Below are positions 1,286 to 54,053 of a stretch of DNA of 64,000 nucleotides, in pieces. The notes under the pieces are model-generated. The model did no database searches and was not told where the DNA came from. It worked only from the letters and a program-made list of their open reading frames with translations. Origin of the DNA: Ignisphaera sp. GTDB taxonomy: Archaea > Thermoproteota > Thermoprotei_A > Sulfolobales > Ignisphaeraceae. The DNA lies in the NCBI GenBank assembly GCA_038889075.1, contig JAWAHS010000001.1:215764-279763 (forward strand), written 5' to 3'. Position numbers and translations under genes: made by a program. The stretch's first letter is position 1, and the number at the start of each line of letters is the position of its first letter.

Positions 1286-1297
1286 GGTGATCACCAT

Positions 1298-2740: not shown

Positions 2741-2894
2741 CAATAGAATACAATAGAATATTTTTAACCAGCGAATACTATTTAGTTAGGCTTTTCATGT
2801 CTGACAAAGGCTAATCAAAAATACGGTCTTAAAAGGTAAAAACTTTCTAAAAGCATGTACTAAAATAGTAAAGGCATATTGAAGGAGGATAGCT

Positions 2895-32571: not shown

Positions 32572-33975
32572 CTAGCTACTGGTTTCTCCAGACCTTACGA
32601 CAGACTCTACGGTTTTGCATACCTCTCTTAGACACTCCTGGAACTCATCATATGTAATTGCATGTGGATTTGACCCCCGTCTCCAAACGTATATTCTATA
32701 TCTATATCCACCATTTATAGGCTTGGTTAATCTAAACCTTAGCACCACATCTGAAATTGTCGAGAATATGTTGTGCAACTCTTCATTTATATATGATGCT
32801 ATTCGAATAACTAATAAACTCTGTTTTCGGAAGGCATTTAACTGGTTATATAGTATTGGTATAAATGTGCTCTTAGGTTCTACTAATGCTGGTAGTTCAG
32901 CACCGTGGAAGATGATAGCATCTATAGTTGGCGTTCTTCTAATTAGGGCTAGCTCTTCTGAGAATAGTCTATAGATACCATATGCAAATGGGTTATAGCT
33001 TTTCACAATGATATTTTCTCTTATAAATTTCTCTATAGCATCTCTATTTGGTGCTGTACTAAACGTTGTATATGTTCTTCCAAGTATATCGATGACTGTT
33101 TCTGGAGAATATCTATAGCTTACTGCAACGGCCCTTAGATTGTTCACAGCTAATATACCGAGTAGTAGAAGGGTGTAATCGGCAATCCTTGCATGTGCTG
33201 GATGTTCGATATACACTATGTGGCCTTTATGTAGATGTCCCCAGAGTTTTTCTAGAAGCCTACAAGGCAGTCTAAGCTCGATTTCTTGAGGTAGTATCTC
33301 CTCTAATAGTGGAGGCATCCATACCTCCAATCCAACATTCTGAGATATCGAGAATGGTATCTCAGCCAGTGTTATTAGAGCTCCTCTAGCCTTCCTAATT
33401 TCAATAATTCTATTCAATATTCCTCTTACTACCTGGTGCTTGAGAATAAATATCGCATCACTTACAAATTCTACTGAACCAAGCTCAATCTTCTCTTCAC
33501 CATATGGAACTTCAGCTATCAAAATCGTGATGCCATCAATACTTTTAGACATCTCATAGAAATAGTTCTGCAACCACGCCCTCTTAGCATCGTCCTTTAC
33601 AGATTGAAGAAGGGCATTTATAGAATCAATGATCACTATACTAGGTTTATATTCTAATAGAACTCCCGAAATGCTCTCAATACCATTTATATCTAGTACA
33701 ATAGGCAGTTTAATAAATCTCAATAATCCTCTTAATTCAACATCCTCGAGATCTATTCTAAGCCTCTTCATTACTCTGAATAGTTTTTCTTTTGTTTCTT
33801 GGAGGGATATGTAGAGGCATCTATATCCCCTTACAGCATTTGCATAGCATATAGTTGAAGCAAGGGTAGTCTTACCTGAGCCGGGATGGCCAGCAATAAC
33901 AATCATCGAACCGGGATGGAGAACATCACCATAGAATTTATCAAGATCATCGATACCAAATACATATTGGTTCAT
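32572..33975 (-). CDS. KaiC/RadA-like RecA-superfamily ATPase (second domain degenerate)
   Basis: FGIDDLD, GHPGSGKTT, IIDSI, EFVSD, IEIRKARG. Confidence 0.85.
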   Translation of the reverse strand: MNQYVFGIDDLDKFYGDVLHPGSMIVIAGHPGSGKTTLASTICYANAVRGYRCLYISLQETKEKLFRVMKRLRIDLEDVELRGLLRFIKLPIVLDINGIESISGVLLEYKPSIVIIDSINALLQSVKDDAKRAWLQNYFYEMSKSIDGITILIAEVPYGEEKIELGSVEFVSDAIFILKHQVVRGILNRIIEIRKARGALITLAEIPFSISQNVGLEVWMPPLLEEILPQEIELRLPCRLLEKLWGHLHKGHIVYIEHPAHARIADYTLLLLGILAVNNLRAVAVSYRYSPETVIDILGRTYTTFSTAPNRDAIEKFIRENIIVKSYNPFAYGIYRLFSEELALIRRTPTIDAIIFHGAELPALVEPKSTFIPILYNQLNAFRKQSLLVIRIASYINEELHNIFSTISDVVLRFRLTKPINGGYRYRIYVWRRGSNPHAITYDEFQECLREVCKTVESVVRSGETSS

Positions 33976-34128
33976 GGTATAACGTCCTCAGCGTCCTATC
34001 CTACTCATTATGTTATAGAAACTAGAATTTATATATTTAATCTTTTTAAGGGATAGAAGGCTGGATCCTCACCAGATAGACGACCATTGTAAGAAATTAA
34101 AATATGCCACTAACTAGCCCTAATAGTA

Positions 34129-35487
34129 TCAAGTTTCTATTTTTATTCCGTGGTCTTCTACTTCCTTTACAGCTTTTTTATAGAGTTCTAACCACCATTT
34201 CTGTGGTTCTATGGTCTTCATGTTATAGAGTTCTGGAAATGGTTTACCGATATCCGGTTTCTCCATAGAGTGTGGATAGTACTTCTTTAGAAACACCTTG
34301 ACAATCTCATTAGCATCTCCCCTACTAAATCTTGTAGCAGCATATGCAATCTGAGCCATAAACCTAGCCTCCAAACCACTAGCATTAGGATACTTACCAT
34401 TAGTTGCACAAACTCCCAGAGGGTGGGATCCTGTAACCACATTTACTATAGTATTGGCCACTATTTCATGGAATATTGTGTATGATCCTGCACCATTGCT
34501 AGTCCATACATCGCCCATTAGGATGAAGGTATCCCCTATTGCTTGCCCAGCAATATTGAGGAGCCACATCGTCTCCGGTGTTGTTGTACTTACATATTTT
34601 GGGTGTATCGGATGTATTATATGGTAATCTGAAAAGTAAGCCGCTCTTCCAAGTATGAAGGATGCTATGAATCCTATAGCTACTCCTTCGGGACTTCCTA
34701 GAAAGCCCCCTATTACTGGGTCTACAAGCGTTACATTGAATCCTCCATAAGCTTTAAATGTATAGGCCTTAATTAAACGGTCATAATCGGTCTTCAAATC
34801 ATTCAATATTGGTACTAGATGGGCGTCGCTTCTCCTGAGTAACTCTGGTTTTTGAATAGCTAAATCACCAATACATGAAACACTGCTTTCTCCAGCAAGC
34901 AAATGAATTCCAGGTCTTCCTGCAGATAATGCGGCACTCCTTAAATACATCAATTCATGAATAGCTGCAAGTGCTTCAGCTGGTGATCTAGTCCTTACAT
35001 CTATTCCTTTCACTTGGGCTAATCCACCATGATTTATAGTATCAATTAGTAGCTCCTTCATATAGGATAGCGCCATCTCGTAGTAGAACTCTTCTGGGAT
35101 TGGAGCTCCTGCTTGCCCTCCCATTATTATTGGTTTTCTCTGATCCTCTATCTTTCTAGCATATAGTATTCTGGAATCCCTACCTTCACCAACTATAATC
35201 TCCTTAGGACTAGACTTTATAGCATATTTGAGCTCCTCTTCAGAAAACTTTACAACTCTTCTAGCATCAACAACATACATACCAACATCTAAAGCTAGCT
35301 GAAAACCTGCTTCAAATACAGATTTGGCTAGTGAACTATCTACAGAAACTATATAGTCTCTATCAAAAACAATATCAAACTCCTTCACCAACCTCTTCAC
35401 AGTACTATATATCCTCATATCAAACTCTCTCTCCTCCATAAACACTCCTTCCTCAATACGCTGCAAAACACTATACATCGACAGCAT
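34129..35487 (-). CDS. mtmB: Monomethylamine:corrinoid methyltransferase (MtmB) homologue 1, pyrrolysine-free (Leu at the Pyl-equivalent site)
   Basis: AGRPG...E.S.S, LNDLKTD, P.IGGF.G.PEG, P.HPKY.ST, GLEARFM, GKPFPELY match the MtmB pattern; no in-frame TAG; ATG at 35487 preceded by GAGGTGA. Confidence 0.88.
   Translation of the reverse strand: MLSMYSVLQRIEEGVFMEEREFDMRIYSTVKRLVKEFDIVFDRDYIVSVDSSLAKSVFEAGFQLALDVGMYVVDARRVVKFSEEELKYAIKSSPKEIIVGEGRDSRILYARKIEDQRKPIIMGGQAGAPIPEEFYYEMALSYMKELLIDTINHGGLAQVKGIDVRTRSPAEALAAIHELMYLRSAALSAGRPGIHLLAGESSVSCIGDLAIQKPELLRRSDAHLVPILNDLKTDYDRLIKAYTFKAYGGFNVTLVDPVIGGFLGSPEGVAIGFIASFILGRAAYFSDYHIIHPIHPKYVSTTTPETMWLLNIAGQAIGDTFILMGDVWTSNGAGSYTIFHEIVANTIVNVVTGSHPLGVCATNGKYPNASGLEARFMAQIAYAATRFSRGDANEIVKVFLKKYYPHSMEKPDIGKPFPELYNMKTIEPQKWWLELYKKAVKEVEDHGIKIET
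34136..34408. repeat. 273-bp inverted repeat, copy A (3' end of mtmB-1); partner 38645-38917
   Basis: Read-through comparison shows identical sequence in reverse complement. Confidence 0.9.
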
Positions 35488-35494
35488 CGCTATC
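35117..35494. repeat. 378-bp inverted repeat, copy A (5' end of mtmB-1); partner 37559-37936
   Basis: Identical in reverse complement from GATAGCGATGCTG to ATAATGGGAGG. Confidence 0.9.
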
Positions 35495-35518
35495 TTCACC
35501 TCTAATAATTTGATACCA

Positions 35519-36196
35519 CTACTTACTAGCTTTTTTCCTTTCCTCAATTAATTTCTTGGCAACGTTAACCGCCTCCTCAAAATGTTCACCATATCCATCA
35601 GCACCTATCTCCTGGGCCCATTCTCTAGTAACAGCTCCTCCACCAACCATAACAATAAATCTTTCACGAAGTCCTCTTTCTTTTAACATTTTAATTACAT
35701 CCTTGACATAGGGAAGGGAGGTGCTCATCAATGCGGAGATAGCTATTATATCAGCACCCGTTTCAATAGCTTTCTTAACAAAGAGATCTACAGGTACATC
35801 CCTTCCCAGATCGATTACATCAAAACCATGGGCTTTTAGCATCATTGCAACGATGTTTTTTCCAAGGTCATGGATGTCGCCTTGTATGGTTCCAATAACC
35901 ACTTTTCCAATTGTTATTTTCTCCTTCTGTGTTGCTGAAATTAGGGGTTCTATATGTTTTAGTGAAGCTTCAAATGCTTCTGCAGCCATCATGACCTCTG
36001 GGAGAAAGATTTCCAGTTTGGCAAATCTATCTCCAACGTTATTCATAGCTGTTATGAGACAATTATTGATAATATCTAAAGGTGGGTAACCAAGGTCTAT
36101 AAGCTTGGTTGTCAATTTACTAGCATTGTCAGCATTTCCGTTCTCGATGGACTCCATCAATTCTAAACATATTTTATCTGCACTTACACTGTTCAT
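35519..36196 (-). CDS. Cognate corrinoid protein (MtmC/MtbC family)
   Basis: B12-binding cap (FLPEVMMAAEA) plus GDIHDLG (DxHxxG), DLGRDVP, SALM, MVGG, IGADGY. Confidence 0.93.
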   Translation of the reverse strand: MNSVSADKICLELMESIENGNADNASKLTTKLIDLGYPPLDIINNCLITAMNNVGDRFAKLEIFLPEVMMAAEAFEASLKHIEPLISATQKEKITIGKVVIGTIQGDIHDLGKNIVAMMLKAHGFDVIDLGRDVPVDLFVKKAIETGADIIAISALMSTSLPYVKDVIKMLKERGLRERFIVMVGGGAVTREWAQEIGADGYGEHFEEAVNVAKKLIEERKKASK

Positions 36197-36403
36197 CGAA
36201 TGCACCACATATAGCTATTTGCTATAATAGTTCTTTTTAAATTTTACCTTAAATAATATACCCATTTAAGATGCGGTGCCAACGAAGTTGCGATAGATCG
36301 CCTATCTTACAATATTTATGTAAAAAATACCATGTGTGTGTAAACGAGAGTTTATATATACCTATTATATGTATGTAAAATCCAAAATAGATCTACCTTA
36401 GAG
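36197..36403. promoter_or_regulatory. Divergent promoter region for the corrinoid/mtmB-1 and BMP/mtmB-2/ABC units
   Basis: AT-rich intergenic segment between head-to-head genes with TATA-like tracts (TTTAAA near 36237, TTTATATATA near 36351). Confidence 0.5.
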
Positions 36404-37552
36404 GTGATTTATGTGGTTAATATTACTCTCAAACTCGCCTTAACTGCAGTAGTCTTACTAATAGTAGGACTGTTAGCTGGATATGGAATTGGAATGCAAT
36501 CCACTAAGAGCACACAGTTACCCGTAACATACACTACAACACTAACCAATACTATTACTATAACATACACTACAACATCTACAGTGACCATTGCTACCCC
36601 AACAATACCATCTGTAAAAGGACTTAAGGTTGCTGCTATATATGTTACACCCCTTGAAGAGCCGTGGAATACGGTGTTGCATACTGCATTAAGTTGGGCT
36701 AGGGAAAAATATGGTATTGATTATAGATACGTTGAAAAAGTTTCTGAGGCAGATGTTGAAAGTGTTATGAGGAGTTTAATTAATGCAGGTTATAGGGTGA
36801 TATTTGCCCATAGCTGGGGTTATAATGAGGTTACGAGAAAGATAGCTCGTGAATATCCTGATGTATTCTTCTTACAAGGCTCAGGCCCTGTTGATGTTGA
36901 CTGGCCATCCAATGTACTAGTCTACGACTACTATATCCAGGATGCAGCTTTTGTAGCAGGTGCTCTTGCAGGGTTATTAACAAAGAGTAATGTAATAGGA
37001 GTTGTAGCAGCATTTCCTGTTGAAGATGTTAATATACTAGTGAACGCTTTTATAGCAGGTGCCAGATATGTCAATCCAAATGTTAAACCTATTGTAACAT
37101 ATATTGAGAGCTGGTTCGATCCTGTGAAAGGACGTGAAGCAGCTGCAGCTCAAATAGCAGCAGGAGCGGACTTCATATATGCCGAAAGATATGGTGTTTT
37201 TGAAGCATGTTTAGATGCTATGAAATCAGGAAGAACTGTATATGCATTTGGAAATGTAGTTGATCAAAATGAGCTAGCACCAGATGTGGTGCTTGGAAGT
37301 GTTGCATGGGATCTCAAATCCTTTGTCGAATATGTTATAACAAACTATGTTGATGGTAGATTAGAGGGTGGGAAGATAATTATGTGGGGTATGAAAGAGG
37401 AGTGGGCAAAGTTTATATGGAATGAAAAGCTAAAGATTCAAATCCCAGAAGACGTTTTACAGAGAGTTTACGGAATAGAGTACATGATAATCAAGGGCGA
37501 GCTAGAAGTTCCAGTATATAGAGATTGGAATCCAAAGAGATGGGGTATCTAA
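36404..37552 (+). CDS. BMP-family ABC transporter substrate-binding protein (nucleoside/purine-type clade)
   Basis: N-terminal TM anchor and Thr-rich linker; NAFIAGARYVNP, ESWFDP, GADFI, GNVVDQ. Confidence 0.9.
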   Translation: MIYVVNITLKLALTAVVLLIVGLLAGYGIGMQSTKSTQLPVTYTTTLTNTITITYTTTSTVTIATPTIPSVKGLKVAAIYVTPLEEPWNTVLHTALSWAREKYGIDYRYVEKVSEADVESVMRSLINAGYRVIFAHSWGYNEVTRKIAREYPDVFFLQGSGPVDVDWPSNVLVYDYYIQDAAFVAGALAGLLTKSNVIGVVAAFPVEDVNILVNAFIAGARYVNPNVKPIVTYIESWFDPVKGREAAAAQIAAGADFIYAERYGVFEACLDAMKSGRTVYAFGNVVDQNELAPDVVLGSVAWDLKSFVEYVITNYVDGRLEGGKIIMWGMKEEWAKFIWNEKLKIQIPEDVLQRVYGIEYMIIKGELEVPVYRDWNPKRWGI

Positions 37553-37558
37553 GGGCTG

Positions 37559-37936
37559 GATAGCGATGCTGTCGATGTATAGTGTTTTGCAGCGTATTGA
37601 GGAAGGAGTGTTTATGGAGGAGAGAGAGTTTGATATGAGGATATATAGTACTGTGAAGAGGTTGGTGAAGGAGTTTGATATTGTTTTTGATAGAGACTAT
37701 ATAGTTTCTGTAGATAGTTCACTAGCCAAATCTGTATTTGAAGCAGGTTTTCAGCTAGCTTTAGATGTTGGTATGTATGTTGTTGATGCTAGAAGAGTTG
37801 TAAAGTTTTCTGAAGAGGAGCTCAAATATGCTATAAAGTCTAGTCCTAAGGAGATTATAGTTGGTGAAGGTAGGGATTCCAGAATACTATATGCTAGAAA
37901 GATAGAGGATCAGAGAAAACCAATAATAATGGGAGG
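37559..37936. repeat. 378-bp inverted repeat, copy B (5' end of mtmB-2)
   Basis: Identical to the reverse complement of 35117-35494. Confidence 0.9.
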
Positions 37937-38930
37937 ACAGTCTGGTGCACCTATACCCGAGGAATTTTACTACGAGATGGCACTATCCTATGCAATAGAA
38001 TCCTATGTAGATATACTATCCGTCGGAGGGCTTGCAAAGATAAGGGGAATAGATGTAAGGACTAGATCACCAGCCGAGGTTCTAGCAACTTTTCTAGAGC
38101 TATCATATCTTAGAATGGCTATACAAGCAGCAGGAAGACCCGGTATGCCAATTAAGGCCGGGGAAAGCAGTGTTTCAGCGCTAGGGGATCTAGCAATATT
38201 GGGAATGCTTAGAAAGACCGATGCACATCTAGTGGCACTGCTCAATGATTTGAAGACCGATTATGATAGACTAGCAAAAGCATTTGCATTCAAACAGTAT
38301 GGAGGTATAAACATAGCCTTAATAGATCCTGTTATCGGCGGCTTCCTAGGGGGTCCTGAGGGCGTAGTCGTAGGTTTAGTAGCTTCCAACATACTCTCCA
38401 AGATAATCTACATGGCTGATTTCATAATAAATCATCCGATACACCCAAAATATGTAAGTACAACAACACCAGAGACGATGTGGGTTTTGAGTACAATAGG
38501 ACAGACAATGGCCCACAATACCGACTTTATAGTAGTAGGCGATGTATGGACTAGCAATGGTGCAGGATCATACACAATATTCCATGAGATGGTCCCTGTC
38601 ACCATTTCCAATACTGTGTCAGGCCTTCATCTATGCGGCGTCGTTGCAACTAATGGTAAGTATCCTAATGCTAGTGGTTTGGAGGCTAGGTTTATGGCTC
38701 AGATTGCATATGCTGCTACAAGATTTAGTAGGGGAGATGCTAATGAGATTGTCAAGGTGTTTCTAAAGAAGTACTATCCACACTCTATGGAGAAACCGGA
38801 TATCGGTAAACCATTTCCAGAACTCTATAACATGAAGACCATAGAACCACAGAAATGGTGGTTAGAACTCTATAAAAAAGCTGTAAAGGAAGTAGAAGAC
38901 CACGGAATAAAAATAGAGACGTTCGAATAA
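37566..38930 (+). CDS. mtmB: MtmB homologue 2, pyrrolysine-free (Lys/AAG at the Pyl-equivalent site)
   Basis: AGRPGMPIKAGESSVS aligns to methanogen AGRPGMGV-O-GPETSLS; termini identical to paralogue 1. Confidence 0.88.
   Translation: MLSMYSVLQRIEEGVFMEEREFDMRIYSTVKRLVKEFDIVFDRDYIVSVDSSLAKSVFEAGFQLALDVGMYVVDARRVVKFSEEELKYAIKSSPKEIIVGEGRDSRILYARKIEDQRKPIIMGGQSGAPIPEEFYYEMALSYAIESYVDILSVGGLAKIRGIDVRTRSPAEVLATFLELSYLRMAIQAAGRPGMPIKAGESSVSALGDLAILGMLRKTDAHLVALLNDLKTDYDRLAKAFAFKQYGGINIALIDPVIGGFLGGPEGVVVGLVASNILSKIIYMADFIINHPIHPKYVSTTTPETMWVLSTIGQTMAHNTDFIVVGDVWTSNGAGSYTIFHEMVPVTISNTVSGLHLCGVVATNGKYPNASGLEARFMAQIAYAATRFSRGDANEIVKVFLKKYYPHSMEKPDIGKPFPELYNMKTIEPQKWWLELYKKAVKEVEDHGIKIETFE
38645..38917. 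repeat. 273-bp inverted repeat, copy B (3' end of mtmB-2)
   Basis: Identical to the reverse complement of 34136-34408. Confidence 0.9.
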
Positions 38931-38945
38931 GGGTTTTGATTAAAA

Positions 38946-40538
38946 ATGAATGCAATTTTTTCCCTTATGAAATCATCTTTACATACTCCTTTATTTATCG
39001 AGATGAGGGGTATAACTAAGATATATCTAAATAGAATACCAGCGCTAATAGATGTGGATTTCGATGTGAAGCCTTGTGAGGTGCATTGTGTAGTAGGGGA
39101 GAATGGTGCAGGTAAATCAACACTTATGAAGATTTTAGCAGGCGTCCTGAAGCCTACTAAAGGGGAGGTTCTGGTAAATGGTAAACACGTAGCATTTAGT
39201 TCACCTACCGATGCTCAGAGGTATGGTATCGGCATGGTTCACCAGCTATTTAATCTGGTTGAAAATCTTACGGTAGTGGATAATGTATTGCTACTTCTCC
39301 CACTATCTCTAAGGGAAAAGCTGTGGATTAATAGGAGGAGATTTGCTATAGATTTTAAGCAATTTTCTGAAAGGATCGGTCTGCCGATGGATCCCTTTGC
39401 TAAAGTTGGATCCCTTTCTGCTGGTTTAAAGCAAAGGCTTGAGATACTAAGGCTTCTCTATCTAGGATTCAGAGTTTTGATATTTGATGAACCCACATCT
39501 ATGCTGACTCCCATAGAGGCTGAAGAACTGTATAGATTTGTTAGAAATGCAAAGAGTAGTGGGATATCTATTATATGGGTGACACATAGATTAAATGAAG
39601 TGAATAGTATATGCGATAGGGTTACTGTTTTAAGAAAAGGTAAGGTAGTGAAACACCTTGCTGAAGAGGATATGCAACGGGGTATAGAATTAGCTGAGCT
39701 TGCATACTATATGGTTGGAGAAAATGGTTTAGAACATCTCCATAAAGTTGGGCACCGCGATTCTAAACTGCAATCCAACAAACCAATCCTTAGGATAGAA
39801 AATGCTGTGATTAAGGATGAACACAATGGTATTAAAATTAAGAACATAAATTTAGAGCTATATAGAGGAGAAATTCTAGGTATAGCAGGAGTCAGTGGTA
39901 ATGGACAGAAAGAGCTTGTAGAAGGATTGTTAGGGTATAGACCACTTGAAAAGGGTAAAATCACATTTGATGGCGTAGACGTAACTTTTATGGGTGTTAG
40001 CGAACGGCTGAAAATGGGTATAGCATACATTCCTGCGGAGAGATTAGAAAGAGGCGTTGCAGAAGATCTTAGTATTGTAGAGAACATGTATACGTACTGG
40101 ATTAACGCTATAGATAGTTTTAGAAAGCAACATCTCTTGAAGAAGAAGCTTCTCTACAATACAGCAGTAAATTTAATTAAAGAATATGATATCAGGACAG
40201 CTGATCCTAACTTTCCTGTAAAAACACTATCGGGAGGCAATATACAGAAACTTATTTTAGCACGAATATTTCAGAACCCCTATATAAAGGTTGTAATTGC
40301 TGAAGAACCTACTGCTGGTCTAGATGTAAAGACAACTAGATTTGTTCACAGAAAGATTATTGAGGCAAGTAGACAAGGAGTATCGTTCATAGTATTTTCC
40401 TCGGAATTAGATGAGTTGCTTAATTTGTCGGATAGGCTGGCTGTAATGTATGATGGGAGAATAACGAGGATATACGACTGTGTGGATACAATCAATATTA
40501 ATGAATTGAGTAGATATATGATGGGGTTGGATGGTTGA
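38946..40538 (+). CDS. ABC transporter ATP-binding protein (fused double-domain, CUT2/nucleoside type)
   Basis: GENGAGKST, MVHQ, FDEPT, GVSGNGQ, LSGGNIQK, SSELDE. Confidence 0.93.
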   Translation: MNAIFSLMKSSLHTPLFIEMRGITKIYLNRIPALIDVDFDVKPCEVHCVVGENGAGKSTLMKILAGVLKPTKGEVLVNGKHVAFSSPTDAQRYGIGMVHQLFNLVENLTVVDNVLLLLPLSLREKLWINRRRFAIDFKQFSERIGLPMDPFAKVGSLSAGLKQRLEILRLLYLGFRVLIFDEPTSMLTPIEAEELYRFVRNAKSSGISIIWVTHRLNEVNSICDRVTVLRKGKVVKHLAEEDMQRGIELAELAYYMVGENGLEHLHKVGHRDSKLQSNKPILRIENAVIKDEHNGIKIKNINLELYRGEILGIAGVSGNGQKELVEGLLGYRPLEKGKITFDGVDVTFMGVSERLKMGIAYIPAERLERGVAEDLSIVENMYTYWINAIDSFRKQHLLKKKLLYNTAVNLIKEYDIRTADPNFPVKTLSGGNIQKLILARIFQNPYIKVVIAEEPTAGLDVKTTRFVHRKIIEASRQGVSFIVFSSELDELLNLSDRLAVMYDGRITRIYDCVDTININELSRYMMGLDG

Positions 40539-41599
40539 TTAAACAGATGGTTACTATCAAGATTGTTAATGTTGTATCCTTTTTCTTAGGATTCTCCATA
40601 CTCTTACTATTCACCGTGTTACTTTTTCTAGTCGCAGGTCTGGATCCCCTTACTTCGATACATCTTCTATTCTATTACGGATTTGGTTCTCCTAATTATC
40701 TCGTTGAGGCTCTATTGAGGAGTGTTCCCCTATTACTCATAAGTCTAGGACTAATGTTCACCTTCATAGCCGGTGTATGGAATATAGGTGCTGAAGGTCA
40801 ATTCTGTATAGGTGCAATAGTTGCTGCCTCCATTGCACTATATACAGCTTGGATGCCCTTTCCCATACCTCTAATCCTAGCTACCATTGGAGGAGGTCTG
40901 GGTGGAGCCCTCTATGCTCTAGTACCAGCTTATCTACGTGCAGTTAGAAACATAAATGAAGTTCTTACATCGCTAATGTTGAACTATATCGCAATCTATT
41001 TTGTGAGCTATCTAATACTTGGTCCACTAAGAAATCCTACAACAAATTTTGCTGAAACACCACCAATACCTGAAACAGCAATAGCACCTCGAATCCTATC
41101 GGGTTACAGATTGAATTATCTTTCAATTTTAGCATTTACATTAATTCCAATTACATTGATAGTACTTAGCAAAACTGGTTTTGGAATGTCCATCAGATTC
41201 ATGGGCCAGAATCCCATAGCTGCAGACTTTATAGCCATTGATAGGAAAAGGCTTATTTTAAGAACAATGTTTATTAGTGGTTTTCTAGCTGGTTTAGCAG
41301 CTGCCCATGAAGTTTTAGGTGTTGTCCATGCCGTTAGGCAAGGGATATCCTCTAGCTATGGCTACATCTCAATTGGTATAGCTTATTTCGGTGGACTACA
41401 TCCTATAGGGATATTTCTTGTATCACTCCTTGCAGCAGGTATAATTAATGGCACTAGATTGATTTGCTTCTTTTTGGGAATCCCCATAGGACTATCCGAT
41501 ATTCTATTTGGTGCTCTACCTATATTTGTGTTCATATCAAATAGAGTTGTAGAGAGACTGATAGTTAACAGATTAATATATGGTAGGGGGGTGCAGTAA
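40535..41599 (+). CDS. ABC transporter permease (nucleoside type)
   Basis: WNIGAEGQ, NEVLTSLMLNY, SGFLAGLA. Confidence 0.9.
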   Translation: MIKQMVTIKIVNVVSFFLGFSILLLFTVLLFLVAGLDPLTSIHLLFYYGFGSPNYLVEALLRSVPLLLISLGLMFTFIAGVWNIGAEGQFCIGAIVAASIALYTAWMPFPIPLILATIGGGLGGALYALVPAYLRAVRNINEVLTSLMLNYIAIYFVSYLILGPLRNPTTNFAETPPIPETAIAPRILSGYRLNYLSILAFTLIPITLIVLSKTGFGMSIRFMGQNPIAADFIAIDRKRLILRTMFISGFLAGLAAAHEVLGVVHAVRQGISSSYGYISIGIAYFGGLHPIGIFLVSLLAAGIINGTRLICFFLGIPIGLSDILFGALPIFVFISNRVVERLIVNRLIYGRGVQ

Positions 41600-42546
41600 T
41601 GAGTACCGTAATTGTATATGATTTCCTTCGTGCTGTTGTTAGGGTTTCAGCACCGCTGTGCTATGCTGGTCTCGGCGAACTTCTTGTAGAGAAGACCGGT
41701 ATGTTAAATATATCAATTGAGGGAACCCTATGGCTTAGTTCGCTAGCAGCATTTATTATCAACTATTACTATGGAAATCCATACTATGGAGTTTTTGTTG
41801 GAATGTTTGTAGGTATGCTGTACTATCTCCTCTTCGGTCTTTTCTCTATATACATTGGGTTGAATCAGGTACTGATTGGTGTAGCACTAAATCTCTTTGC
41901 CTACGGATCCACATTCTATATATACAGATTTGTTTTTGAATGGAGGGAGAGAACAACAATACCATCTGTAAAGACCCTTATGGACGATCTTAGAATACCC
42001 TTCTTATCCGATGCACCTTTCCTTGGTGGTGTACTTTTCAATCAACCTATCACGGTATATGGACTCTATATCCTCATACCACTAGCATACTATCTTCTAA
42101 ATAAAACTATGTACGGACTCTATATTACATCCATAGGCGAGAATCCGGAGGCTTCTGATCGATTAGGTATATCGGTTTTCAAATACAGACTGCTATGTCT
42201 CTGTCTAGGAGGACTACTTGTCGGATTAGGTGGTTCCATCTTCACCACATACCTATCAAATATCTATTTGGATCAGATGATTGCGGGAAGAGGATTCATT
42301 GTCATAGCCCTCTTGATCCTAGGATCGTGGACGCCTTTAAAAACAATAGGTGCCATTCTACTATATTCATTTATTGAAGCTTTTCAATATAGATTTCAAG
42401 CACTCTTTGCGTCGCTAATGACATTCATACCATATCAGTTTGTATTAATGCTACCATACCTTACTACAATTATAGCATTGACAGTAATTGGAAGGAAAAT
42501 CAAACCTCCTGCGTGGCTTGGTAAACACTATACACGCATTAAATAG
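41599..42546 (+). CDS. ABC transporter permease (nucleoside type)
   Basis: GELLVEKTGMLNISIEG, GENPEA, AGRGFI, LPYL, PPAWLG. Confidence 0.9.
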   Translation: MSTVIVYDFLRAVVRVSAPLCYAGLGELLVEKTGMLNISIEGTLWLSSLAAFIINYYYGNPYYGVFVGMFVGMLYYLLFGLFSIYIGLNQVLIGVALNLFAYGSTFYIYRFVFEWRERTTIPSVKTLMDDLRIPFLSDAPFLGGVLFNQPITVYGLYILIPLAYYLLNKTMYGLYITSIGENPEASDRLGISVFKYRLLCLCLGGLLVGLGGSIFTTYLSNIYLDQMIAGRGFIVIALLILGSWTPLKTIGAILLYSFIEAFQYRFQALFASLMTFIPYQFVLMLPYLTTIIALTVIGRKIKPPAWLGKHYTRIK

Positions 42547-42635
42547 ATATATGGTGAAAGCATATAGGTAGGCATATTAGAGGGTGGTGCAGATGCTTAA
42601 GAAGTTGTTTAAAAATCTTGAAATCTTTTTAGTAG

Positions 42636-43649
42636 GTGGTTAATATGATTAAATCTAGCGAAAAGATTAATCTGCTATTAAGGAACGGATACTCAGAGGA
42701 GGTAGTAGTTTTCCCTATAGTAGGATACCACGCAGCATACGTTTATAATATACCGTTTTCCATATATGTTAGAGATGCTAAGAGGATGGCTGAAACTCAG
42801 TATAAGGTGCTTAAATACTATGGATCTGATTTCATAGCACCTGTCATGGATTTAACAGTAGAGGCTGAGGCACTAGGCGTTTCCGTATCGTGGAACTCCA
42901 TTCCACCATCAATACATAGCCACCTAACAGTTAATGATATGCACATCATTGATAGATTAGCCAGCAACTTTCTTAGTCTTGGAAGAATTCCAGTATTCCT
43001 TGAATCCATAAAGACGCTTAGAGAAATCGATAGAGACGATAAGATTATATGTGGTTATGTCACAGGCCCCCTTACACTGGCTGGGAATGTATTTGGCTAT
43101 GAAAATACTCTTAAATTAGTATTGAAGGATCCTCGTAAGCTTAGTGAAATCATCGATCTGCTCCAGAGGTTGTCAATTCCATATCTAAGGGCATTGGTAG
43201 AAAACGGAGCTGATTGCATCATTGTAGCGGATCCGTTATCGGCTTTAATATCTCCACAGCACTATACTACATTTTCACTTAAACCATTAAAGACAATTGT
43301 AGATGAGGTAGAGAGATTGAATAGAATTGCAATTCTACATACTTGTGGAAATGCTACCAGAATACTAAGGCTGATGGCTGAAACAGGTGCTCATATTCTA
43401 AGCATAGACAAATATGTAGATATAGGATTTGCGCTAACGAGCACCAATAGGGTAATAATGGGTAATGTGCCAACCACATTATTTCTAATGAGTGCTGAAA
43501 AAGTATCGGAATATACGCTATCTATTCTAAACATATCTATGGGAAGAAGACACATTATAGCATCAGGTTGCGAAATACCTCCATACTCAAACCCAGAGTG
43601 TATAAAAGCAATGGTATCTTCAGCAAAATCCTTTAGTATACGGAGCTAA
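42636..43649 (+). CDS. MtaA/MtbA-like methylcobamide methyltransferase (MT2, URO-D fold)
   Basis: DLTVEAEALG, GPLTLA, ADP, LHTCG (HxC) and SGCE zinc ligands, MGNV. Confidence 0.85.
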   Translation: MVNMIKSSEKINLLLRNGYSEEVVVFPIVGYHAAYVYNIPFSIYVRDAKRMAETQYKVLKYYGSDFIAPVMDLTVEAEALGVSVSWNSIPPSIHSHLTVNDMHIIDRLASNFLSLGRIPVFLESIKTLREIDRDDKIICGYVTGPLTLAGNVFGYENTLKLVLKDPRKLSEIIDLLQRLSIPYLRALVENGADCIIVADPLSALISPQHYTTFSLKPLKTIVDEVERLNRIAILHTCGNATRILRLMAETGAHILSIDKYVDIGFALTSTNRVIMGNVPTTLFLMSAEKVSEYTLSILNISMGRRHIIASGCEIPPYSNPECIKAMVSSAKSFSIRS

Positions 43650-44073
43650 CTACTTGCTACGTAATATCAATGTTAACTTGTTATCCACTGAGAAATACCA
43701 AAGAGTGATATCTACTAGGAATCCATTTGCGGCAGTAAATGTAGAGAAGTAGACTATCTAATGTACATATTATGCAGTTTTGAAATATCCGGCGAATGGC
43801 TATCCTTCGTCATTTCAAGCATACCCGTGGATAAAAATCTAACCTTTAATTATTCTCAAAAAAGCTCTATATGCTATGTACATTCCTCTAATAATGGTGC
43901 TCCCTAATCGATTTAAATCCACGTATTTCTACCAAATGGCAGGCAAACCAATTTTCAAATATTATAGATAGATTACAAGCTCAGTATTGCGTACCCTAGT
44001 GAGCTGCATCAAGCTGTTGTTTAAGAGTGTGTTTAAAATACTTACATAATTGATTTTCTAGATAGCTGGTTGG

Positions 44074-45624
44074 GTGTATACCGTGTTCAAAGGGTTCAAG
44101 ATCATTCTTACAGGTGACGAAGGTCTTGTAAGTAGTTACTATGGTACATATTTGGGCTTTGCATCAAGTTTGCCTATGGACATCTTTCCAGCTATCCTCG
44201 GAGAGTTTCTATTCCCCATTAGAAGTGGGAAACATGGAAGGATGCTCACTAGCCAGTACGGCTTATGTAAAATCGAGGCTACATTACTGAATAGTGGTTT
44301 TTCAAGAAATGAAGTTGCCATTGTAGATCCTAGGAGACTTGAGGAAGCTATAGGTCCTGAGACCCGAGCTATCGGTATAGGAGTTCTCGATCCCCTTGGC
44401 GTTAATTATGGCACAGCCCTTCTAAGGATAGTGCTTAGACTTATTGGAATGGAAACTAGGCTTCAGTCATACATGTCCTGGGCAACAATGAAAATCTTCA
44501 ACAACCCTGCTGTTAAGGGTTATAGAAATAGGCTCAAGATTATTGTAGGTGGACAGGGTGTATGGGAGATAATTGACGGAGGTTTGCAGAGGAAACTCGG
44601 TATAGATACTATAGTTGAAGGTGAGGGGGAATTAGTTGCCCCTACATTATTTAAGGCAGCTGTTAATGGTATGCCTTTGCCCAGCTATATAAGGGGTCCT
44701 CCGGTTCCAGTTGATAGAATCCCTGTAATAAGGACACCATCAAGGGGATTTGTAGAGATAACTAGAGGATGTGGAAGAGGCTGCATGTTCTGTAACCCTA
44801 CATTACTCATGTTTAGGTCCATACCCTACGAAAATATCTCTAGAGAGATCCTCACTAATTTGATAGGAAATGAAAAAAGAATAACACTACACTCGGAAGA
44901 TTTCCTTAGATACGGTTCAACAAGCCTCTATCCAAATGAAGAAAAAATTACCAAAATGCTTGGAAATATCTTAAAGATTCCAGGCCTAGAGGAGGTTACA
45001 GTAGACTTTGTGGCAGCTTCTACAGTCATGCTCAATCCTAGACTTGTCAAAGCAGCTAGCGATATCCTAGGTATTGGAGGTAGAAATCGATCGTTGATTC
45101 AGATGGGTATTGAGAGTGCAAGTCCGAGAATAATCAAGCTGATTGCTCCAGGAAAACCTAAGCCCTTTAGCTATGAAAAATGGCCTGAAGTAGTAGAATC
45201 AGCTATTATCGTATTGAATGATACTGGTTGGTGGGTTTGTGCAACGATAATAGTGGAGCTACCTTTCGAACAACATGAAGATATAGAAAGTAATATAAAA
45301 ATGGTAGAGAAGTTGGAACACTACGATGTACTCGTACTCCCCCTACCATTTATACCATCGGGAAGTCTTAGAAGAATAAAGAAGTTTACCTCTTCACACA
45401 TCCTAACGCATGCTAGAAATCTAGAGCTAATAGCCATAGCAGTATATGATGCAGTGAAAAAGATAAGGAAACTCTCAAAGTATCTAGTTGCACGAGCTCC
45501 TATCGGGGTAAAGCAACTATTAGGAGGTTTGCTCTATATGGCAGCAACTATAGGTGTTAGAAAACTCCAGAGAGGTATTCTAGAGTTCAAGATGCAATCG
45601 TACCTTAATCGGTATTCACTATAG
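44074..45624 (+). CDS. B12-binding-domain radical SAM protein
   Basis: YGLCKIEA, DPLG, VGGQG, EGEGE, EITRGCGRGCMFC (CxxxCxxC), GIES. Confidence 0.85.
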   Translation: MYTVFKGFKIILTGDEGLVSSYYGTYLGFASSLPMDIFPAILGEFLFPIRSGKHGRMLTSQYGLCKIEATLLNSGFSRNEVAIVDPRRLEEAIGPETRAIGIGVLDPLGVNYGTALLRIVLRLIGMETRLQSYMSWATMKIFNNPAVKGYRNRLKIIVGGQGVWEIIDGGLQRKLGIDTIVEGEGELVAPTLFKAAVNGMPLPSYIRGPPVPVDRIPVIRTPSRGFVEITRGCGRGCMFCNPTLLMFRSIPYENISREILTNLIGNEKRITLHSEDFLRYGSTSLYPNEEKITKMLGNILKIPGLEEVTVDFVAASTVMLNPRLVKAASDILGIGGRNRSLIQMGIESASPRIIKLIAPGKPKPFSYEKWPEVVESAIIVLNDTGWWVCATIIVELPFEQHEDIESNIKMVEKLEHYDVLVLPLPFIPSGSLRRIKKFTSSHILTHARNLELIAIAVYDAVKKIRKLSKYLVARAPIGVKQLLGGLLYMAATIGVRKLQRGILEFKMQSYLNRYSL

Positions 45625-45742
45625 AGAATTAACATTTAAATATCACATACGAAAATCCTTAGTCATATTAGTATTGAGGATTTTATACTCTGCTAAATCA
45701 AGGTAACTACAAATATTGTAGACGGCACATCTTGTATAGGTA

Positions 45743-47978
<2,236 letters not shown>

Positions 47979-48083
47979 AAAACAGTACACCTCGAATAAT
48001 CCCATGTACTATTTCATTCCATGGTACAGTAAGAGATGCCCTACCTATCTTAGGAGACGATGTTCCTAGGTTTAGATAGAGCT

Positions 48084-48779
48084 TCACTGTCTAGTCTTAT
48101 CTAAATATATCTTTATATCGTTAAAGGAAATTGATATGGCGCTTTTCGGTATACCAATCGGCATTATGTAGACCGGGGTTTCACCAGGCTTTACACCCAC
48201 TACCTCTGCAACTTCAGAATCTCTAAAAGCACCTATAGCAACAGTACCGTAGCCTAGTGCTACTGACATCAGATACACATTTTGACCAAGATGTCCAACA
48301 TCCATGGGCACATACCTATACCTTCCCCTCTCACCATAATATCTCGTGGTTCTCTCATACACAGCACATACAACTATACTAACCGGCGCCTCTTCAATCC
48401 ATTTCTGATTTAGTGCTGCTTTTGCTAGGCTTCTTCTAGCATCACCCTTCTTTACATTAGATAGACCATGTACGTGTGGAATGTATCTATATACACCAGC
48501 TTCTAGATATCCTCCATCAAACGTGTGAACAGAGTTCTCACCGATAGCAGTATATACCTCTAGAGGATATGTCGCACCTGCACTTGGTGATGATCTAAAC
48601 CCATTTATAGGATCGGTGATACCATAGGCAGCCCATAGAATCATGGACAGGTGGTCTAGCCTAATAGGTTCTTTCCTAAATTCTCTAATGCTTCTCCGCA
48701 AAAGAATTGCTTCCTCTACAGTTACTGACGATAGTTTCTGGGGTATTGGAAGATAGATTAGAGACATATTTTCGACCAT
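48084..48779 (-). CDS. SagB/ThcOx-family nitroreductase
   Basis: RRSIREF, LWAAYG, RSSPSAGATYPLE, YGERGRYRY, DVGHLGQN, IGAF. Confidence 0.88.
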   Translation of the reverse strand: MVENMSLIYLPIPQKLSSVTVEEAILLRRSIREFRKEPIRLDHLSMILWAAYGITDPINGFRSSPSAGATYPLEVYTAIGENSVHTFDGGYLEAGVYRYIPHVHGLSNVKKGDARRSLAKAALNQKWIEEAPVSIVVCAVYERTTRYYGERGRYRYVPMDVGHLGQNVYLMSVALGYGTVAIGAFRDSEVAEVVGVKPGETPVYIMPIGIPKSAISISFNDIKIYLDKTRQ

Positions 48780-48839
48780 AAACTACCTTTGCACTATCGA
48801 CTAGAAATACCTTATAGCTACCATCTACATCTATACTAT

Positions 48840-50126
48840 TTACAGTATTTTTAGAAGGGAACCCCTTAGATCATAGAAGGTCGCATCTCTAATTAAAGCA
48901 TATCCTTTTTTCCCCAGGACCTCAACGCCCTGTTCAAGGATTACCGGTCTATAGTTATATAGCCTACCTATAGCCTTATCTCTATCAACATCCATCTCGG
49001 TTATCCAAACCTTTGCAATCGATCCTATGTATTCCCTATTTAGATTCAGTGCCACTACCTCATATACTCTTTCTATATAGCTACTTCTCTGCTTTTTTAT
49101 TGGATCTGGTATTTGGGGCATTAATGCGGATTTTGTCTGCGGCCTTGGCGAAAATCTTGCTATATGAACTCTATCAATGTAGTTTTCAGATATGAGTTGA
49201 ACGCTATCTAAAAATGCTTGATTGTCTTCACCAGGATGACCTACAATTATATCAGTTGCTATATGTATACCCTCAATTTTACTGCGAACCTCCTTAACGA
49301 TGTCTAGAAACTGTTCAACACTATGGCCCCTATTCATAGCCTTTAAAACCATGTTATTACCACTTTGTATAGGTATGTGGAGGTGCTTATATACTCTAGG
49401 ATCTTTCAATATATCTATTAAACCATCGAGATAATTGGTAATATGCCTTGGATTAAGCTGTCCAAGCCTCAGTATAAAGTCCTCTGAATCGATTTCAAGT
49501 ATGCTTTGGAAAAGCCTTGGCAGTGCGTAGACCCCATATAGGTCAACTCCATATACACTCAAATCCTGTGCTGTTATTTCAATTTCTAAAGCTCCCATGG
49601 ATAGCACCTCTTTAACTGTTGCAACGACCTTCTCTATAGGAGCACTACGGAGAAACGGTCTAGATACCTTAACGATACAAAATGAACACTCATCTATACA
49701 GCCCTCTGCAACTGGAATGCTGGCTTTCACACCTTCTATTACCTTCGGCATTATATGGAAGGACTTAAAATCATCTACTATAATAGTCTGAGGCGGTGCT
49801 TCAACAGCTTCAACAATTCTGCAAACACTCTGGGGTACTAGCAATATAGAATGTGGATAGACCTTTCGGATATTGGCTGGCAGCGCCCTAGCCATACATC
49901 CAGCAACTATAATCTTCTTACCTAATTTAGATAGAGTCTCTAACCTCTTAACCATTCTAACCTCGGTATCGTATCTAACAATACACGTGTTTAAGATAAT
50001 TACATCGGCATCATTAGGCGCATCGACAATCTCATAGCCATTATCCAGCAGTACGGTCTTCATAATTGCAGCATCAGCTCTATTCAATGTACATCCATAT
50101 ACTTCTATGTAGACCTTTTTAGCCAT
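48840..50126 (-). CDS. tRNA t6A37 methylthiotransferase (archaeal MtaB/CDKAL1-type radical SAM)
   Basis: YGCTLN, NTCIV, VAGC, EGCIDECSFC, HIPIQSG, TDIIVGHPGE, TRAM domain. Confidence 0.92.
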   Translation of the reverse strand: MAKKVYIEVYGCTLNRADAAIMKTVLLDNGYEIVDAPNDADVIILNTCIVRYDTEVRMVKRLETLSKLGKKIIVAGCMARALPANIRKVYPHSILLVPQSVCRIVEAVEAPPQTIIVDDFKSFHIMPKVIEGVKASIPVAEGCIDECSFCIVKVSRPFLRSAPIEKVVATVKEVLSMGALEIEITAQDLSVYGVDLYGVYALPRLFQSILEIDSEDFILRLGQLNPRHITNYLDGLIDILKDPRVYKHLHIPIQSGNNMVLKAMNRGHSVEQFLDIVKEVRSKIEGIHIATDIIVGHPGEDNQAFLDSVQLISENYIDRVHIARFSPRPQTKSALMPQIPDPIKKQRSSYIERVYEVVALNLNREYIGSIAKVWITEMDVDRDKAIGRLYNYRPVILEQGVEVLGKKGYALIRDATFYDLRGSLLKIL

Positions 50127-53898: not shown

Positions 53899-54053
53899 GG
53901 GCCCGTAGCTCAGCTAGGTAGAGCGGCGGACTATGAAAATGGGCCGAGGCTCCAGTTACTATGGGTCTGATGACCCTAGTGGGATGAAATGAAACTGGAG
54001 CGTTGATGGGAGAGACCCGTAGGTCGGGGGTTCAAATCCCCCCGGGCCCACCA
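53899..54053 (+). tRNA. tRNA-Trp(CCA) with two introns: 19 nt at 30/31 (53930-53948) and 59 nt at 37/38 (53956-54014)
   Basis: Removing both inserts gives a 77-nt cloverleaf with GCGGG-CTCCAGA-CCCGT anticodon arm and encoded CCA; both inserts form BHB-type motifs. Confidence 0.9.
53956..54014 (+). ncRNA. Intron-encoded box C/D-type guide for tRNA-Trp Cm34 and Cm39
   Basis: CTATGGGTCTG+ATGA pairs with tRNA 35-45 (D+5 gives C39); AACTGGAGC+G+TTGA pairs with 31-37+TT (D+5 gives C34); C'-like GGATGA lies between. Confidence 0.75.

Follow-up and report, generated by a model that had tools for sequence, protein, structure and literature searches.

Two inverted genes of the MtmB methyltransferase family in the archaeon Ignisphaera sp. 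(assembly GCA_038889075.1, contig JAWAHS010000001.1) combine identical ends with cores that are saturated at synonymous sites. Judged by comparison of the gene sequences, the genes were duplicated long ago and gene conversion has since homogenised their ends again and again. The pair exemplifies partial concerted evolution clearly but is not without precedent, since concerted evolution of mtmB has already been published. The reading that we favour, with a probability of roughly 0.78, joins an old inverted duplication to recurrent conversion of the ends, divergence of the barrels and an occasional inversion through the 3' repeat. The converted parts would be the elements outside the barrel and the protected part the whole catalytic barrel, making the locus a clean natural example of conversion and divergence coexisting in one gene pair.

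Organisation of the locus

The window, the whole 64-kb stretch that was analysed, covers positions 215,764-279,763 of the forward strand of the contig. Copy B (34129..35487, minus strand, 452 aa, translated without a stop) and copy A (P0001; 37566..38930, plus strand, 454 aa) are divergent, their 5' ends facing each other across genes for a corrinoid protein and a BMP-family protein, which bears out the head-to-head arrangement first noticed. The two proteins are identical at 371 of 454 positions (82%). The most likely start codon of copy B is the ATG at 35487, preferred because homologues begin there; the predicted protein is identical to the database protein P0004 at 451 of 452 residues. A TTG at 35547 opens the reading frame, but homologues align from the ATG.

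Directly upstream of copy B lies the gene for a corrinoid protein of the MtmC/MtbC/MtgC type (35519..36208, minus strand; PF02310 and PF02607), which scores 212.2 bits against the TIGR02370 cut-off of 215.3, and directly upstream of copy A is a gene for an ABC substrate-binding protein of the BMP/PnrA family (36404..37552, plus strand; PF02608, E 3.3e-47). The AT-rich divergent intergenic region at 36209..36403, as read from the sequence, presumably holds both promoters; a sigma-70 promoter scan of it has no validity here, the host being an archaeon. Copy A is followed on the plus strand by a run of genes (38946..43649) assigned through Pfam and NCBIfam: an ABC ATPase (38946-40538), two permeases (40535-41599 and 41599-42546) and an MT2 of the MtaA/CmuA family (42636-43649; PF01208; TIGR01463 at 173.8 bits, below its cut-off of 235.4). 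By these profile matches a three-component methyltransferase set is present, consisting of the MT1 copies, the adjacent corrinoid protein and an MtaA/MtbA-type MT2. The organism also has CdhD/CdhE and a corrinoid activase.

Family identity and predicted structure

Both copies match PF05369 across profile positions 2-450 of 450, with scores of 325.9 and 304.6 bits against a cut-off of 25 (E 5.3e-97 for copy A and 1.6e-90 for copy B). Neither contains an in-frame TAG, both frames being open under translation table 11. A phmmer alignment of copy A to Methanosarcina barkeri MtmB (E 1.2e-65) sets K197 opposite chain residue 202, and Pyl202 is named as the pyrrolysine site in the available text of PMC9842639. 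The equivalent residue is Lys197 (AAG) in copy A and Leu (CTT) in copy B. Because they are members of PF05369 without an in-frame TAG, the copies are non-pyrrolysine homologues, and the name mtmB, given to them by the sequence-only reading, does not hold in the sense of a pyrrolysine-type monomethylamine methyltransferase. Among 121 family proteins examined, the site is occupied by L in 60, V in 30, I in 27, Lys in 3 and M in 1. Copy B, with its Leu, has a barrel of the ancestral type and copy A one of a derived type; the three Lys-bearing homologues mark a small clade whose genes adjoin an ancestral-type copy, a single corrinoid protein, a BMP-type ABC importer and an MT2.

An AlphaFold2 model of copy A (pLDDT 95.8) has the TIM-barrel fold of M. 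barkeri MtmB and superimposes in Foldseek on the MtmB structures 1tv2, 1l2q and 1nth with a TM score of 0.95 and an rmsd of 1.6 Å over 452 columns. DSSP assigns strands in the model to residues 121-123, 196-198, 220-226, 248-253, 286-289, 323-328 and 355-360. The unconverted core begins immediately past strand 1 and runs through strand 8 of the predicted (beta/alpha)8 barrel, whose strands span residues 121-360; in this the model agrees with the initial proposal, which placed the variation in the catalytic barrel. Most of the barrel strands differ between A and B or have flanking differences. Over residues 125-360 the copies are identical at 155 of 234 aligned positions, so that the divergence of the core stands, at 66% rather than the "roughly 60%" estimated by eye.

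Identical ends and short identical patches

A repeat search of the window returned four inverted pairs (I1 to I4), the two longest being I1 (35062-35494/37559-37991; 433 nt, 97%) and I2 (34133-34408/38645-38920; 276 nt, printed as 100%). Exact string matching defined the maximal identical blocks within them: 37559-37936 is the reverse complement of 35117-35494 (378 nt), and 38645-38917 that of 34136-34408 (273 nt). One more base at either end of either block and the match is lost. The limits of the blocks coincide with the limits of homology, 7 nt upstream of the ATG and on the last codon that the copies share.

The 5' tract comprises those 7 nt and codons 1-124, on the minus strand in copy B (35117..35494; pS 0.013, pN 0) and on the plus strand in copy A (37559..37936), where its inner edge falls after ATG GGA GG (codons 122-124) in both genomes compared. 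The 3' tract comprises codons about 361-451 (34136..34408, minus strand, in copy B; pS 0.037-0.038, pN 0; and 38645..38917, plus strand, in copy A), with the same edge in the pair of genes from a second genome described below. Between them lies the unconverted core, at 37937..38644 on the plus strand in copy A and 34409-35116 on the minus strand in copy B.

Three shorter exact patches interrupt the core. One of 50 nt, encoding the GDVWTSNGAGS motif (38538..38587, plus strand; B side 34466-34515), is the same in A and B inside each genome, and between genomes it carries 4 synonymous and 1 non-synonymous differences. One of 38 nt, HPIHPKYVSTTT (38433..38470, plus strand; B side 34577-34614), is specific to the lineage of the window, with 7 differences at the same place in the second pair. 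A further patch of 29 nt, encoding GIDVRTRSPA (38046..38074, plus strand; B side 34979-35007), is likewise not identical in the second pair. The repeat search and exact matching together recovered all four repeat pairs reported at the outset, namely the two end blocks and the 38- and 50-nt patches.

The coding alignment of A and B is 81% identical overall and 65% in the core, and its identical runs at the ends measure 371 and 271 nt. In 10,000 shuffles of the columns the longest run averaged 28.5 nt and never exceeded 74 nt. Shuffling the columns of the core never gave a run above 31 nt; when codons of the core were shuffled, runs of at least 38 nt appeared in 0.02% and 50 nt was never reached.

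Conversion of the ends and divergence of the cores

Synonymous and non-synonymous differences (pS and pN, NG86) were calculated for the window pair by codon segment. Codons 1-124 gave a pS of 0.013 and a pN of 0; codons 125-142, 0.94 and 0.024; codons 143-362, 0.68 (dS 1.8) and 0.24; and codons 363 to the end, 0.038 and 0. Over the core of A and B, pS is 0.68-0.70 and pN 0.23-0.24, a ratio that is uninformative because dS is saturated. Sharp tract edges adjoin these saturated regions.

The same mosaic was found in a second Ignisphaera genome, which carries a B-type gene at locus L001 and an A-type gene at L006. Tract boundaries match those of the window to within one codon, and just inside them the choice of synonymous codons tracks the paralogue type, not the genome. 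Within the second genome the ends have a pS of 0 (0-0.04 over all within-genome comparisons); between the window and L001/L006 they have a pS of 0.43-0.50 and a pN of 0.06-0.11, about 17% of nucleotides differing. The pN of orthologous cores is 0.053-0.060, the end segments changing between genomes as fast or faster. Identity of the ends at all sites, synonymous ones included, could in principle come from strong purifying selection on the nucleotides themselves, exerted for instance through RNA structure, extreme codon bias or an overlapping gene, in place of recombination. This explanation, whose probability we put close to nil, is contradicted by the divergence of the ends between genomes, and also by codons 125-142, where the two copies encode near-identical protein and yet have a pS of 0.94.

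Trees built with IQ-TREE for the N-terminal, core and C-terminal segments (21-22 rows) separate the histories of the parts. In the core tree all 4 A-type rows fall into a single clade (100/100), and all 6 B-type rows into another (81/77). In each of the N and C trees the type label needs 3-4 changes, and the sequences group instead as window A and B with P0004; L001 and L006 with P0003 and P0005; and P0006 with P0008 and P0010. Ends are therefore more alike within a genome than between orthologues of different genomes, in more than one lineage, as concerted evolution requires, and cores group by paralogue type. The synonymous pattern, the mosaic of the second genome and the segment trees uphold the earlier proposal that the ends are converted and the cores kept apart.

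A long branch (0.44 changes per column) leads to the A-type core, which alone has Lys at the Pyl site, as might be expected if the copies were recent duplicates, one of which had acquired a foreign barrel by a horizontal domain swap. The branch nevertheless emerges from within Desulfurococcales sequences rather than next to a remote donor, and A and B cores co-occur in three lineages with lineage-specific ends, which would call for three replacements at the same boundaries or for one old event followed by conversion. Replacement of a core is therefore very improbable.

An artefact of assembly, in which repeat collapse or polishing makes the ends identical and misjoins at the repeats swap their linkages, has only a slim chance, a little above that of core replacement. 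All the genomes involved are MAG-type assemblies, the repeats exceed usual k-mers, and L001 and L006 both lie at contig ends, as is typical of short-read breakage at repeats. Against this, two independent assemblies share the mosaic and its boundaries, and yet each species has end sequences of its own; ends also group by lineage among other database proteins (P0003/P0005 and P0006/P0008/P0010); the blocks end exactly at the limits of homology; and collapse would not yield lineage-specific patches of 29-50 nt. The artefact is weak as an account of the mosaic; as an account of the difference in orientation discussed below it is a plausible one.

Under the favoured reading of recurrent conversion, an old duplication in an Ignisphaera-like ancestor would have produced two inverted copies of a non-pyrrolysine MtmB-family MT1, B placed behind the corrinoid-protein gene and A behind the BMP gene, ahead of the ABC-transporter and MT2 genes. 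By homologous recombination the copies would repeatedly convert one another over the first 124 and the last ~92 codons, keeping these identical inside a genome while they drift between genomes. The barrel (residues ~125-360) would escape, except for the micro-tracts of 29-50 nt at conserved motifs, and the unconverted barrels may have diverged in function. Tract edges fall at the same codons in two species despite the ~17% nucleotide difference in their ends; the boundary may be held by selection against barrel chimeras or by the inability of the diverged core to support heteroduplex extension, and probably by both. We infer the recombination mechanism from this pattern; divergence alone suggests selection on the cores and a difference in substrates.

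Linkage of the cores to their flanks

In the window the A core precedes the ABC-transporter and MT2 genes. At L001 the ABC, permease, permease and MT2 genes come after a B-type gene (86% identical to B, 72% to A), and the 10 kb downstream of it are syntenic with 38946-49514 of the window. P0004, identical to B at all but one residue, yet ends in ...IETFE as does A, and this end lies beyond the repeat, where the flanks of A and B are unrelated. Core and 3' flank are thus paired one way in the window and the other way in both L001 and P0004. Nothing in the 64-kb window corresponds to the downstream flank of the A-type gene at L006, so that a plain inversion does not relate the second genome to the window.

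The repeats being inverted, crossover between them would invert the segment that they enclose. The sequence-only reading placed this crossover in the 5' repeats, flipping the corrinoid/BMP segment; the geometry is sound, but no sign of such an event was found: the corrinoid gene adjoins a B-type gene in the window, as it does in 26 of 30 related loci, and a contig end cuts off the remaining 4. Inversion as such fares better, since the swapped linkage fits crossover in the 3' repeat, not the 5' repeat. The block at 38645..38917 is the likely site of a crossover that swaps which core adjoins the ABC genes. Such an event would occasionally invert a segment of ~4.2 kb containing both cores, carrying the intergenic region at 36209..36403 along and exchanging the unit (corrinoid protein and B, or BMP and A) that reads into the ABC, permease and MT2 genes. 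That the linkage swap is a real inversion is indirectly supported, MAG misassembly being the alternative. Should inversion prove real and frequent, recombination would provide a simple means of rewiring operon membership.

A programmed switch, a phase-variation cassette flipping often within a population to choose the barrel co-transcribed with the transporter and MT2, with end identity kept for that purpose, would explain why both linkages occur among close relatives, P0004 included; by its geometry a flip would break no gene and would exchange operon membership. Pfam detected no integrase, invertase or transposase family in the 58 ORFs scanned in the window (those of 110 aa or more throughout, shorter ones at 30-43 kb), the repeats consist of long stretches of coding sequence and not of short sites, and every gene would stay behind a promoter in either isomer, so that nothing is turned off. 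We regard such a switch as distinctly unlikely. Unlikely too, if slightly less so, is a toggle formed by the nested inverted repeats, with frequent flip-flop at the 3' repeat and both isomers present in a population. It would set whether the Lys or the Leu barrel is co-transcribed with the importer and MT2; the ends would be identical because both barrels dock the single corrinoid protein and can form mixed hexamers, and the toggle would serve as bet-hedging for methylated substrates in a non-methanogenic archaeon.

Relation to known systems

Near-identical 5' and 3' parts around divergent middles, exchanged by conversion, are familiar from the babA/babB-type loci of Helicobacter pylori, and in the "flip-flop" of plastid inverted repeats copy correction keeps the repeats identical while recombination gives both orientations. 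Unlike the window pair, babA and babB encode outer-membrane adhesins and the plastid repeats belong to organelle genomes.

The closest family precedent is the published concerted evolution of the mtmB, mtmC, mtbB and mtbC paralogues of Methanosarcinales (Commun Biol 2018, PMC6053082). There too, by the available text, members of the MtmB family and proteins of the MT1-corrinoid complex are kept alike over the long term by recurrent conversion. Those are pyrrolysine-type methanogen genes treated whole, and the words "inverted" and "partial" do not occur in that text; the window genes are non-pyrrolysine genes of a Desulfurococcales-type archaeon, converted only at their ends, with barrel-edge boundaries conserved in two species and with inverted copies 2 kb apart. 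The inversely oriented tufA and tufB genes of Salmonella enterica (Mol Microbiol 2017, PMC5485169) resemble the window pair as inverted paralogues co-evolving by conversion, which in the portion available is described as RecA-dependent, with tracts that break off where homology ends and are restricted by mismatches; a title cited there links conversion with inversions. The tuf genes lie 762 kb from each other, show 12 nucleotide differences and convert over their full length, whereas the window genes are 2 kb apart and exclude a diverged core of 708 nt.

MtqB of Methanococcoides methylutens Q3c (Front Microbiol 2026, PMC13044021) is described as the first non-pyrrolysine MtmB with a demonstrated function, on tetramethylammonium and choline, the others being of unknown function according to the same excerpt. 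By that description it resembles the window genes as a non-pyrrolysine homologue acting with a cognate corrinoid protein and MT2, and is set apart from them by their neighbouring BMP-type ABC transporter; the MtqB clade is marked by conserved Met/Cys and aromatic residues in its pocket. Because only this one non-pyrrolysine MtmB has a known substrate (PMC13044021), the A/B pair with its identical ends offers a ready-made comparison for the determinants of substrate choice in the family. M. petrocarbonis LWZ-6, which grows on monomethylamine according to the accessible part of PMC12244365, carries at locus L013 a TAG-free homologue 57% identical to B, a lead only as to the substrate of the window genes.

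Organization of the Gene Pair

Copy A (37566-38930, + strand, 454 aa) and copy B (34129-35487, - strand, 452 aa) are inverted paralogues, each matching the Pfam MtmB family (PF05369) over its full length (E 5e-97 and 2e-90, respectively). Both reading frames are open under table 11 and contain no TAG, identifying the products as non-pyrrolysine MtmB homologues. The two proteins are 82% identical overall (371/454) and 66% identical (155/234) at residues 125-360. The interval between the genes holds one for a corrinoid protein (35519-36208, - strand), immediately 5' of B, and one for a BMP/PnrA-family binding protein (36404-37552, + strand), immediately 5' of A. Downstream of copy A, across a gap of 15 nt, genes for an ABC ATPase, two permeases and an MtaA/CmuA-family MT2 methyltransferase occupy 38946-43649. 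Within the 5' part of the BMP gene, 36525-36596 consists of two tandem 36-nt units, 75% alike, which encode a Thr-rich stretch, probably a linker, following the predicted membrane anchor. A scan for σ70 promoters and terminators returned 7 promoter-like sites against 17.9 expected and was discarded, the model not being applicable to an archaeon.

A repeat search of 33000-40000 revealed four inverted repeat pairs. Exact matching defined a maximal identical 5' block of 378 nt (37559-37936 versus 35117-35494) and a maximal identical 3' block of 273 nt (38645-38917 versus 34136-34408), both of which break upon extension by one base in either direction; the repeat coordinates proposed from the sequence alone were thus correct to the base. 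Inside the core, patches of 50 and 38 nt are identical at every base between A and B, and a third exact patch spans 29 nt (38046-38074 versus 34979-35007). The observed runs in the coding alignment measure 371 and 271 nt; shuffling its columns 10,000 times gave longest identical runs of 28.5 nt on average and 74 at most. When the core was treated separately, column-shuffled runs never exceeded 31 nt, and runs of at least 38 nt appeared in 0.02% of codon shuffles.

A Mosaic of Identical Ends and a Diverged Core

Nei-Gojobori estimates of synonymous (pS) and non-synonymous (pN) differences per site change abruptly along the pair. Codons 1-124 give pS 0.013 and pN 0 and codons 363 to the end give pS 0.038 and pN 0, while codons 143-362 give pS 0.68 (dS 1.8) and pN 0.24, bearing out the synonymous divergence that the sequence-only reading had noted between identical ends. 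At codons 125-142, pS is 0.94 and pN 0.024: nearly the same protein is encoded with saturated synonymous sites, which argues that protein-level constraint is not the source of the identical ends. These codons (37938-37991 in copy A) lie directly past the 5' tract edge, and nearly every synonymous site in them differs. As a synonymous excess the value was rejected, since it represents about 11 of 11.7 sites and is not significant by a rough binomial estimate; whether synonymous divergence at the tract edge hinders the tract from extending further is a question that so small a sample can only raise.

A scan of genome contigs yielded 30 related loci, none of which belongs to a genome with copies identical to those studied here. 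One MAG from an uncultured Ignisphaera sp. carries one gene of each type, both located at contig ends: a complete B-type gene (L001) and an A-type gene that begins at residue 107 (L006). These two are identical to each other over their shared 5' part and their final ~270 nt, and the same ends differ from ours at ~17% of positions (pS 0.43-0.50, pN 0.06-0.11). Selection at the nucleotide level could hold the ends identical within a genome, but is contradicted by this divergence between genomes; ends that are identical within and different between genomes exclude such constraint and indicate that homogenization has proceeded separately in each lineage. Both genomes have their tract edges at the same codons, the 5' tract ending after ATG GGA GG (codons 122-124) and the 3' tract beginning before GCx ACT AAT GGT (codon 361). 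Just inside these edges, synonymous codon choice tracks paralogue type rather than genome. The 50-nt patch is likewise identical within each genome, with 4 synonymous and 1 non-synonymous differences between genomes; identity at the 38-nt and 29-nt patches is limited to our pair. In the MAG, identity between the copies continues ~14 nt beyond the stop codon (L001 1340-1400, L006 1000-1060), reaching the ABC ATPase start codon in L001; the duplicated unit in that genome apparently extends over the spacer ahead of the ABC gene.

Segment trees were built with IQ-TREE (LG+C20). The core and C segments had 22 rows each and the N segment 21, L006 being too short there and dropped. In the core tree, the four A-type rows (copy A, L006 and the database proteins P0003 and P0006) form one clade (100/100) and the six B-type rows another (81/77). 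The N and C segment trees require 3-4 changes per type label and group copies A and B with P0004, L001 and L006 with P0003 and P0005, and P0006 with P0008 and P0010. Cores that sort by type and ends that sort by lineage imply that the duplication is older than at least three lineages and that conversion of the ends has recurred since then, as expected under the earlier proposal that gene conversion homogenizes them. Replacement of a single core by foreign DNA would also leave diverged cores between identical ends, but would need repeating in three lineages. Assembly collapse, by which the identical blocks would be artifacts, explains the mosaic poorly, given that independent assemblies show species-specific ends, common edges and lineage-specific micro-tracts.

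Homologous recombination between the inverted paralogues is the best reading of the mosaic. Conversion would hold the ends identical; the diverged barrel would block tract extension, or selection would protect it, or both; and occasional crossovers between the inverted copies would produce inversions. The process itself is already known, including in the MtmB family. PMC6053082 describes long-lasting concerted evolution in Methanosarcinales for mtmB, mtmC, mtbB and mtbC, a parallel within the same family. The Salmonella tufA/tufB genes, which like the Ignisphaera pair are inversely oriented paralogues undergoing conversion, are the classic conversion model (PMC5485169), and a title cited there ties tuf genes to inversions. 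New here are conversion that is partial and bounded by a domain at conserved edges, the inverted placement of the two genes close together, and a paralogue with Lys in place of pyrrolysine. A literature search found no publication joining Ignisphaera with monomethylamine.

Core-Flank Linkage and Possible Inversion

In our stretch the A core adjoins the ABC side. The L001 gene is B type (86% identity to B, 72% to A), and is followed by ABC-permease-permease-MT2 genes and then by 10 kb syntenic with 38946-49514. P0004, an NCBI protein from an Ignisphaera sp. MAG, matches copy B at 451/452 residues, yet terminates in IETFE, as copy A does, where copy B has IET as its end. The extra codons lie past the repeat end, where the A and B flanks are unrelated, so that they can come from crossing over within the 3' repeat but not from conversion. 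Such a crossover would invert 34409-38644, a segment made up of the two cores, the genes for the corrinoid and BMP proteins, and the divergent intergenic stretch, and would leave corrinoid, B and ABC genes in order on one strand and BMP and A on the other.

The sequence-only reading had envisaged a flip across the 5' repeats. The swapped linkage fits inversion through the 3' repeat instead; no flip across the 5' repeats was seen, the order corrinoid to B type being kept here and in 26 of 30 loci, with the other 4 ending at a contig edge. All assemblies compared for linkage are MAGs, and both L001 and L006 lie at contig ends; assembly collapse may explain the orientation difference. A tblastx search with L006 found nothing matching in our stretch beyond the mtmB gene, leaving the L006 downstream flank with no match here. 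A programmed inversion switch would account for alternative orientations but is unlikely: the 58 ORFs scanned in our stretch include no member of a recombinase family. L001 has, at the corresponding position, no counterpart of the gene at 44074-45624, just 3' of the MT2 gene, which encodes a B12-binding-domain/radical SAM protein with a weak TIGR04013 match; synteny jumps from 43669 to 45733.

The Barrel Core and the Pyrrolysine Site

Copy A matches M. barkeri MtmB at E 1.2e-65 (phmmer). Its AlphaFold2 model, from 57 aligned sequences (pLDDT 95.8), superposes on 1tv2, 1l2q and 1nth with TM 0.95 at 1.6 Å. The first barrel strand is modeled at 121-123 and the last at 355-360, so the unconverted core (125-360) would be essentially the whole (β/α)8 barrel, the converted parts being the N-terminal extension and C-terminal helices of the model. 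A/B differences fall in or beside most barrel strands, with a 2-residue indel after strand 3 (DSSP string mapping). Pyl202 of MtmB is described as anchored to a barrel strand (PMC9842639). Opposite it, copy A has Lys197 (AAG, 38154-38156) on strand 196-198, and copy B has Leu. Lys197 lies within a GRPGM..K motif similar to that of M. barkeri MtmB. Among 121 family proteins, the equivalent site is Lys in 3, all A type, Leu in 60, Val in 30, Ile in 27 and Met in 1. These sequence differences suggest that A and B may differ in substrate or chemistry.

An A/B heteromer prediction scored 0.50 (runs 0.52, 0.02 and 0.50; best of 3 controls 0.00), graded as weak support under a pass mark reached by 51/78 solved complexes and 2/108 mismatched pairs; scores of 0.60 or below include only 5/78 solved complexes and all 4 passing mismatches (of 180). 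Contact agreement across runs was at least 0% and partner pLDDT at least 89; the prediction gave no interface. The pass is uninformative because MtmB is a solved homohexamer (PMC9842639), which the predictor may recall.

Wider Context

The 30 loci include Desulfurococcales, Methanomethylicia, both Methanosuratincola chromosomes and two Chloroflexi. A corrinoid gene lies directly upstream of the B-like gene in 26, ABC or permease genes occur in 25, and a BMP gene in 19 (cut-off 150 aligned residues). Another, distantly related member of the MtmB family (26-36% identity), present at 26 loci, is absent among the ORFs scanned here. The module, in which the corrinoid gene is followed by the non-Pyl MtmB gene and then the distant paralogue, with the importer alongside, is old and widespread; the inverted A/B pair is a feature specific to the Ignisphaera group. 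The BMP-type ABC importer suggests a substrate bigger than monomethylamine.

The stretch is archaeal, with tRNA genes that presumably bear introns and with archaeal ribosomal and translation genes, its closest named relatives being Ignisphaera and Desulfurococcales MAGs. The region 2-5526, some 30 kb away from the methyltransferase genes, encodes parts of the methyl branch of the acetyl-CoA pathway: CdhD (delta, truncated by the window start), CdhE (gamma, the corrinoid Fe-S protein), an AcsV/RACo-type corrinoid activase and a CooC-like ATPase. These genes hint at non-methanogenic methylotrophy feeding acetyl-CoA synthesis. ARAGORN found only a tRNA-Thr (14611-14687), and Rfam detected two further tRNA genes, at 53899-54050 (152 nt) and 6159-6261 (103 nt), presumably missed by ARAGORN owing to introns.
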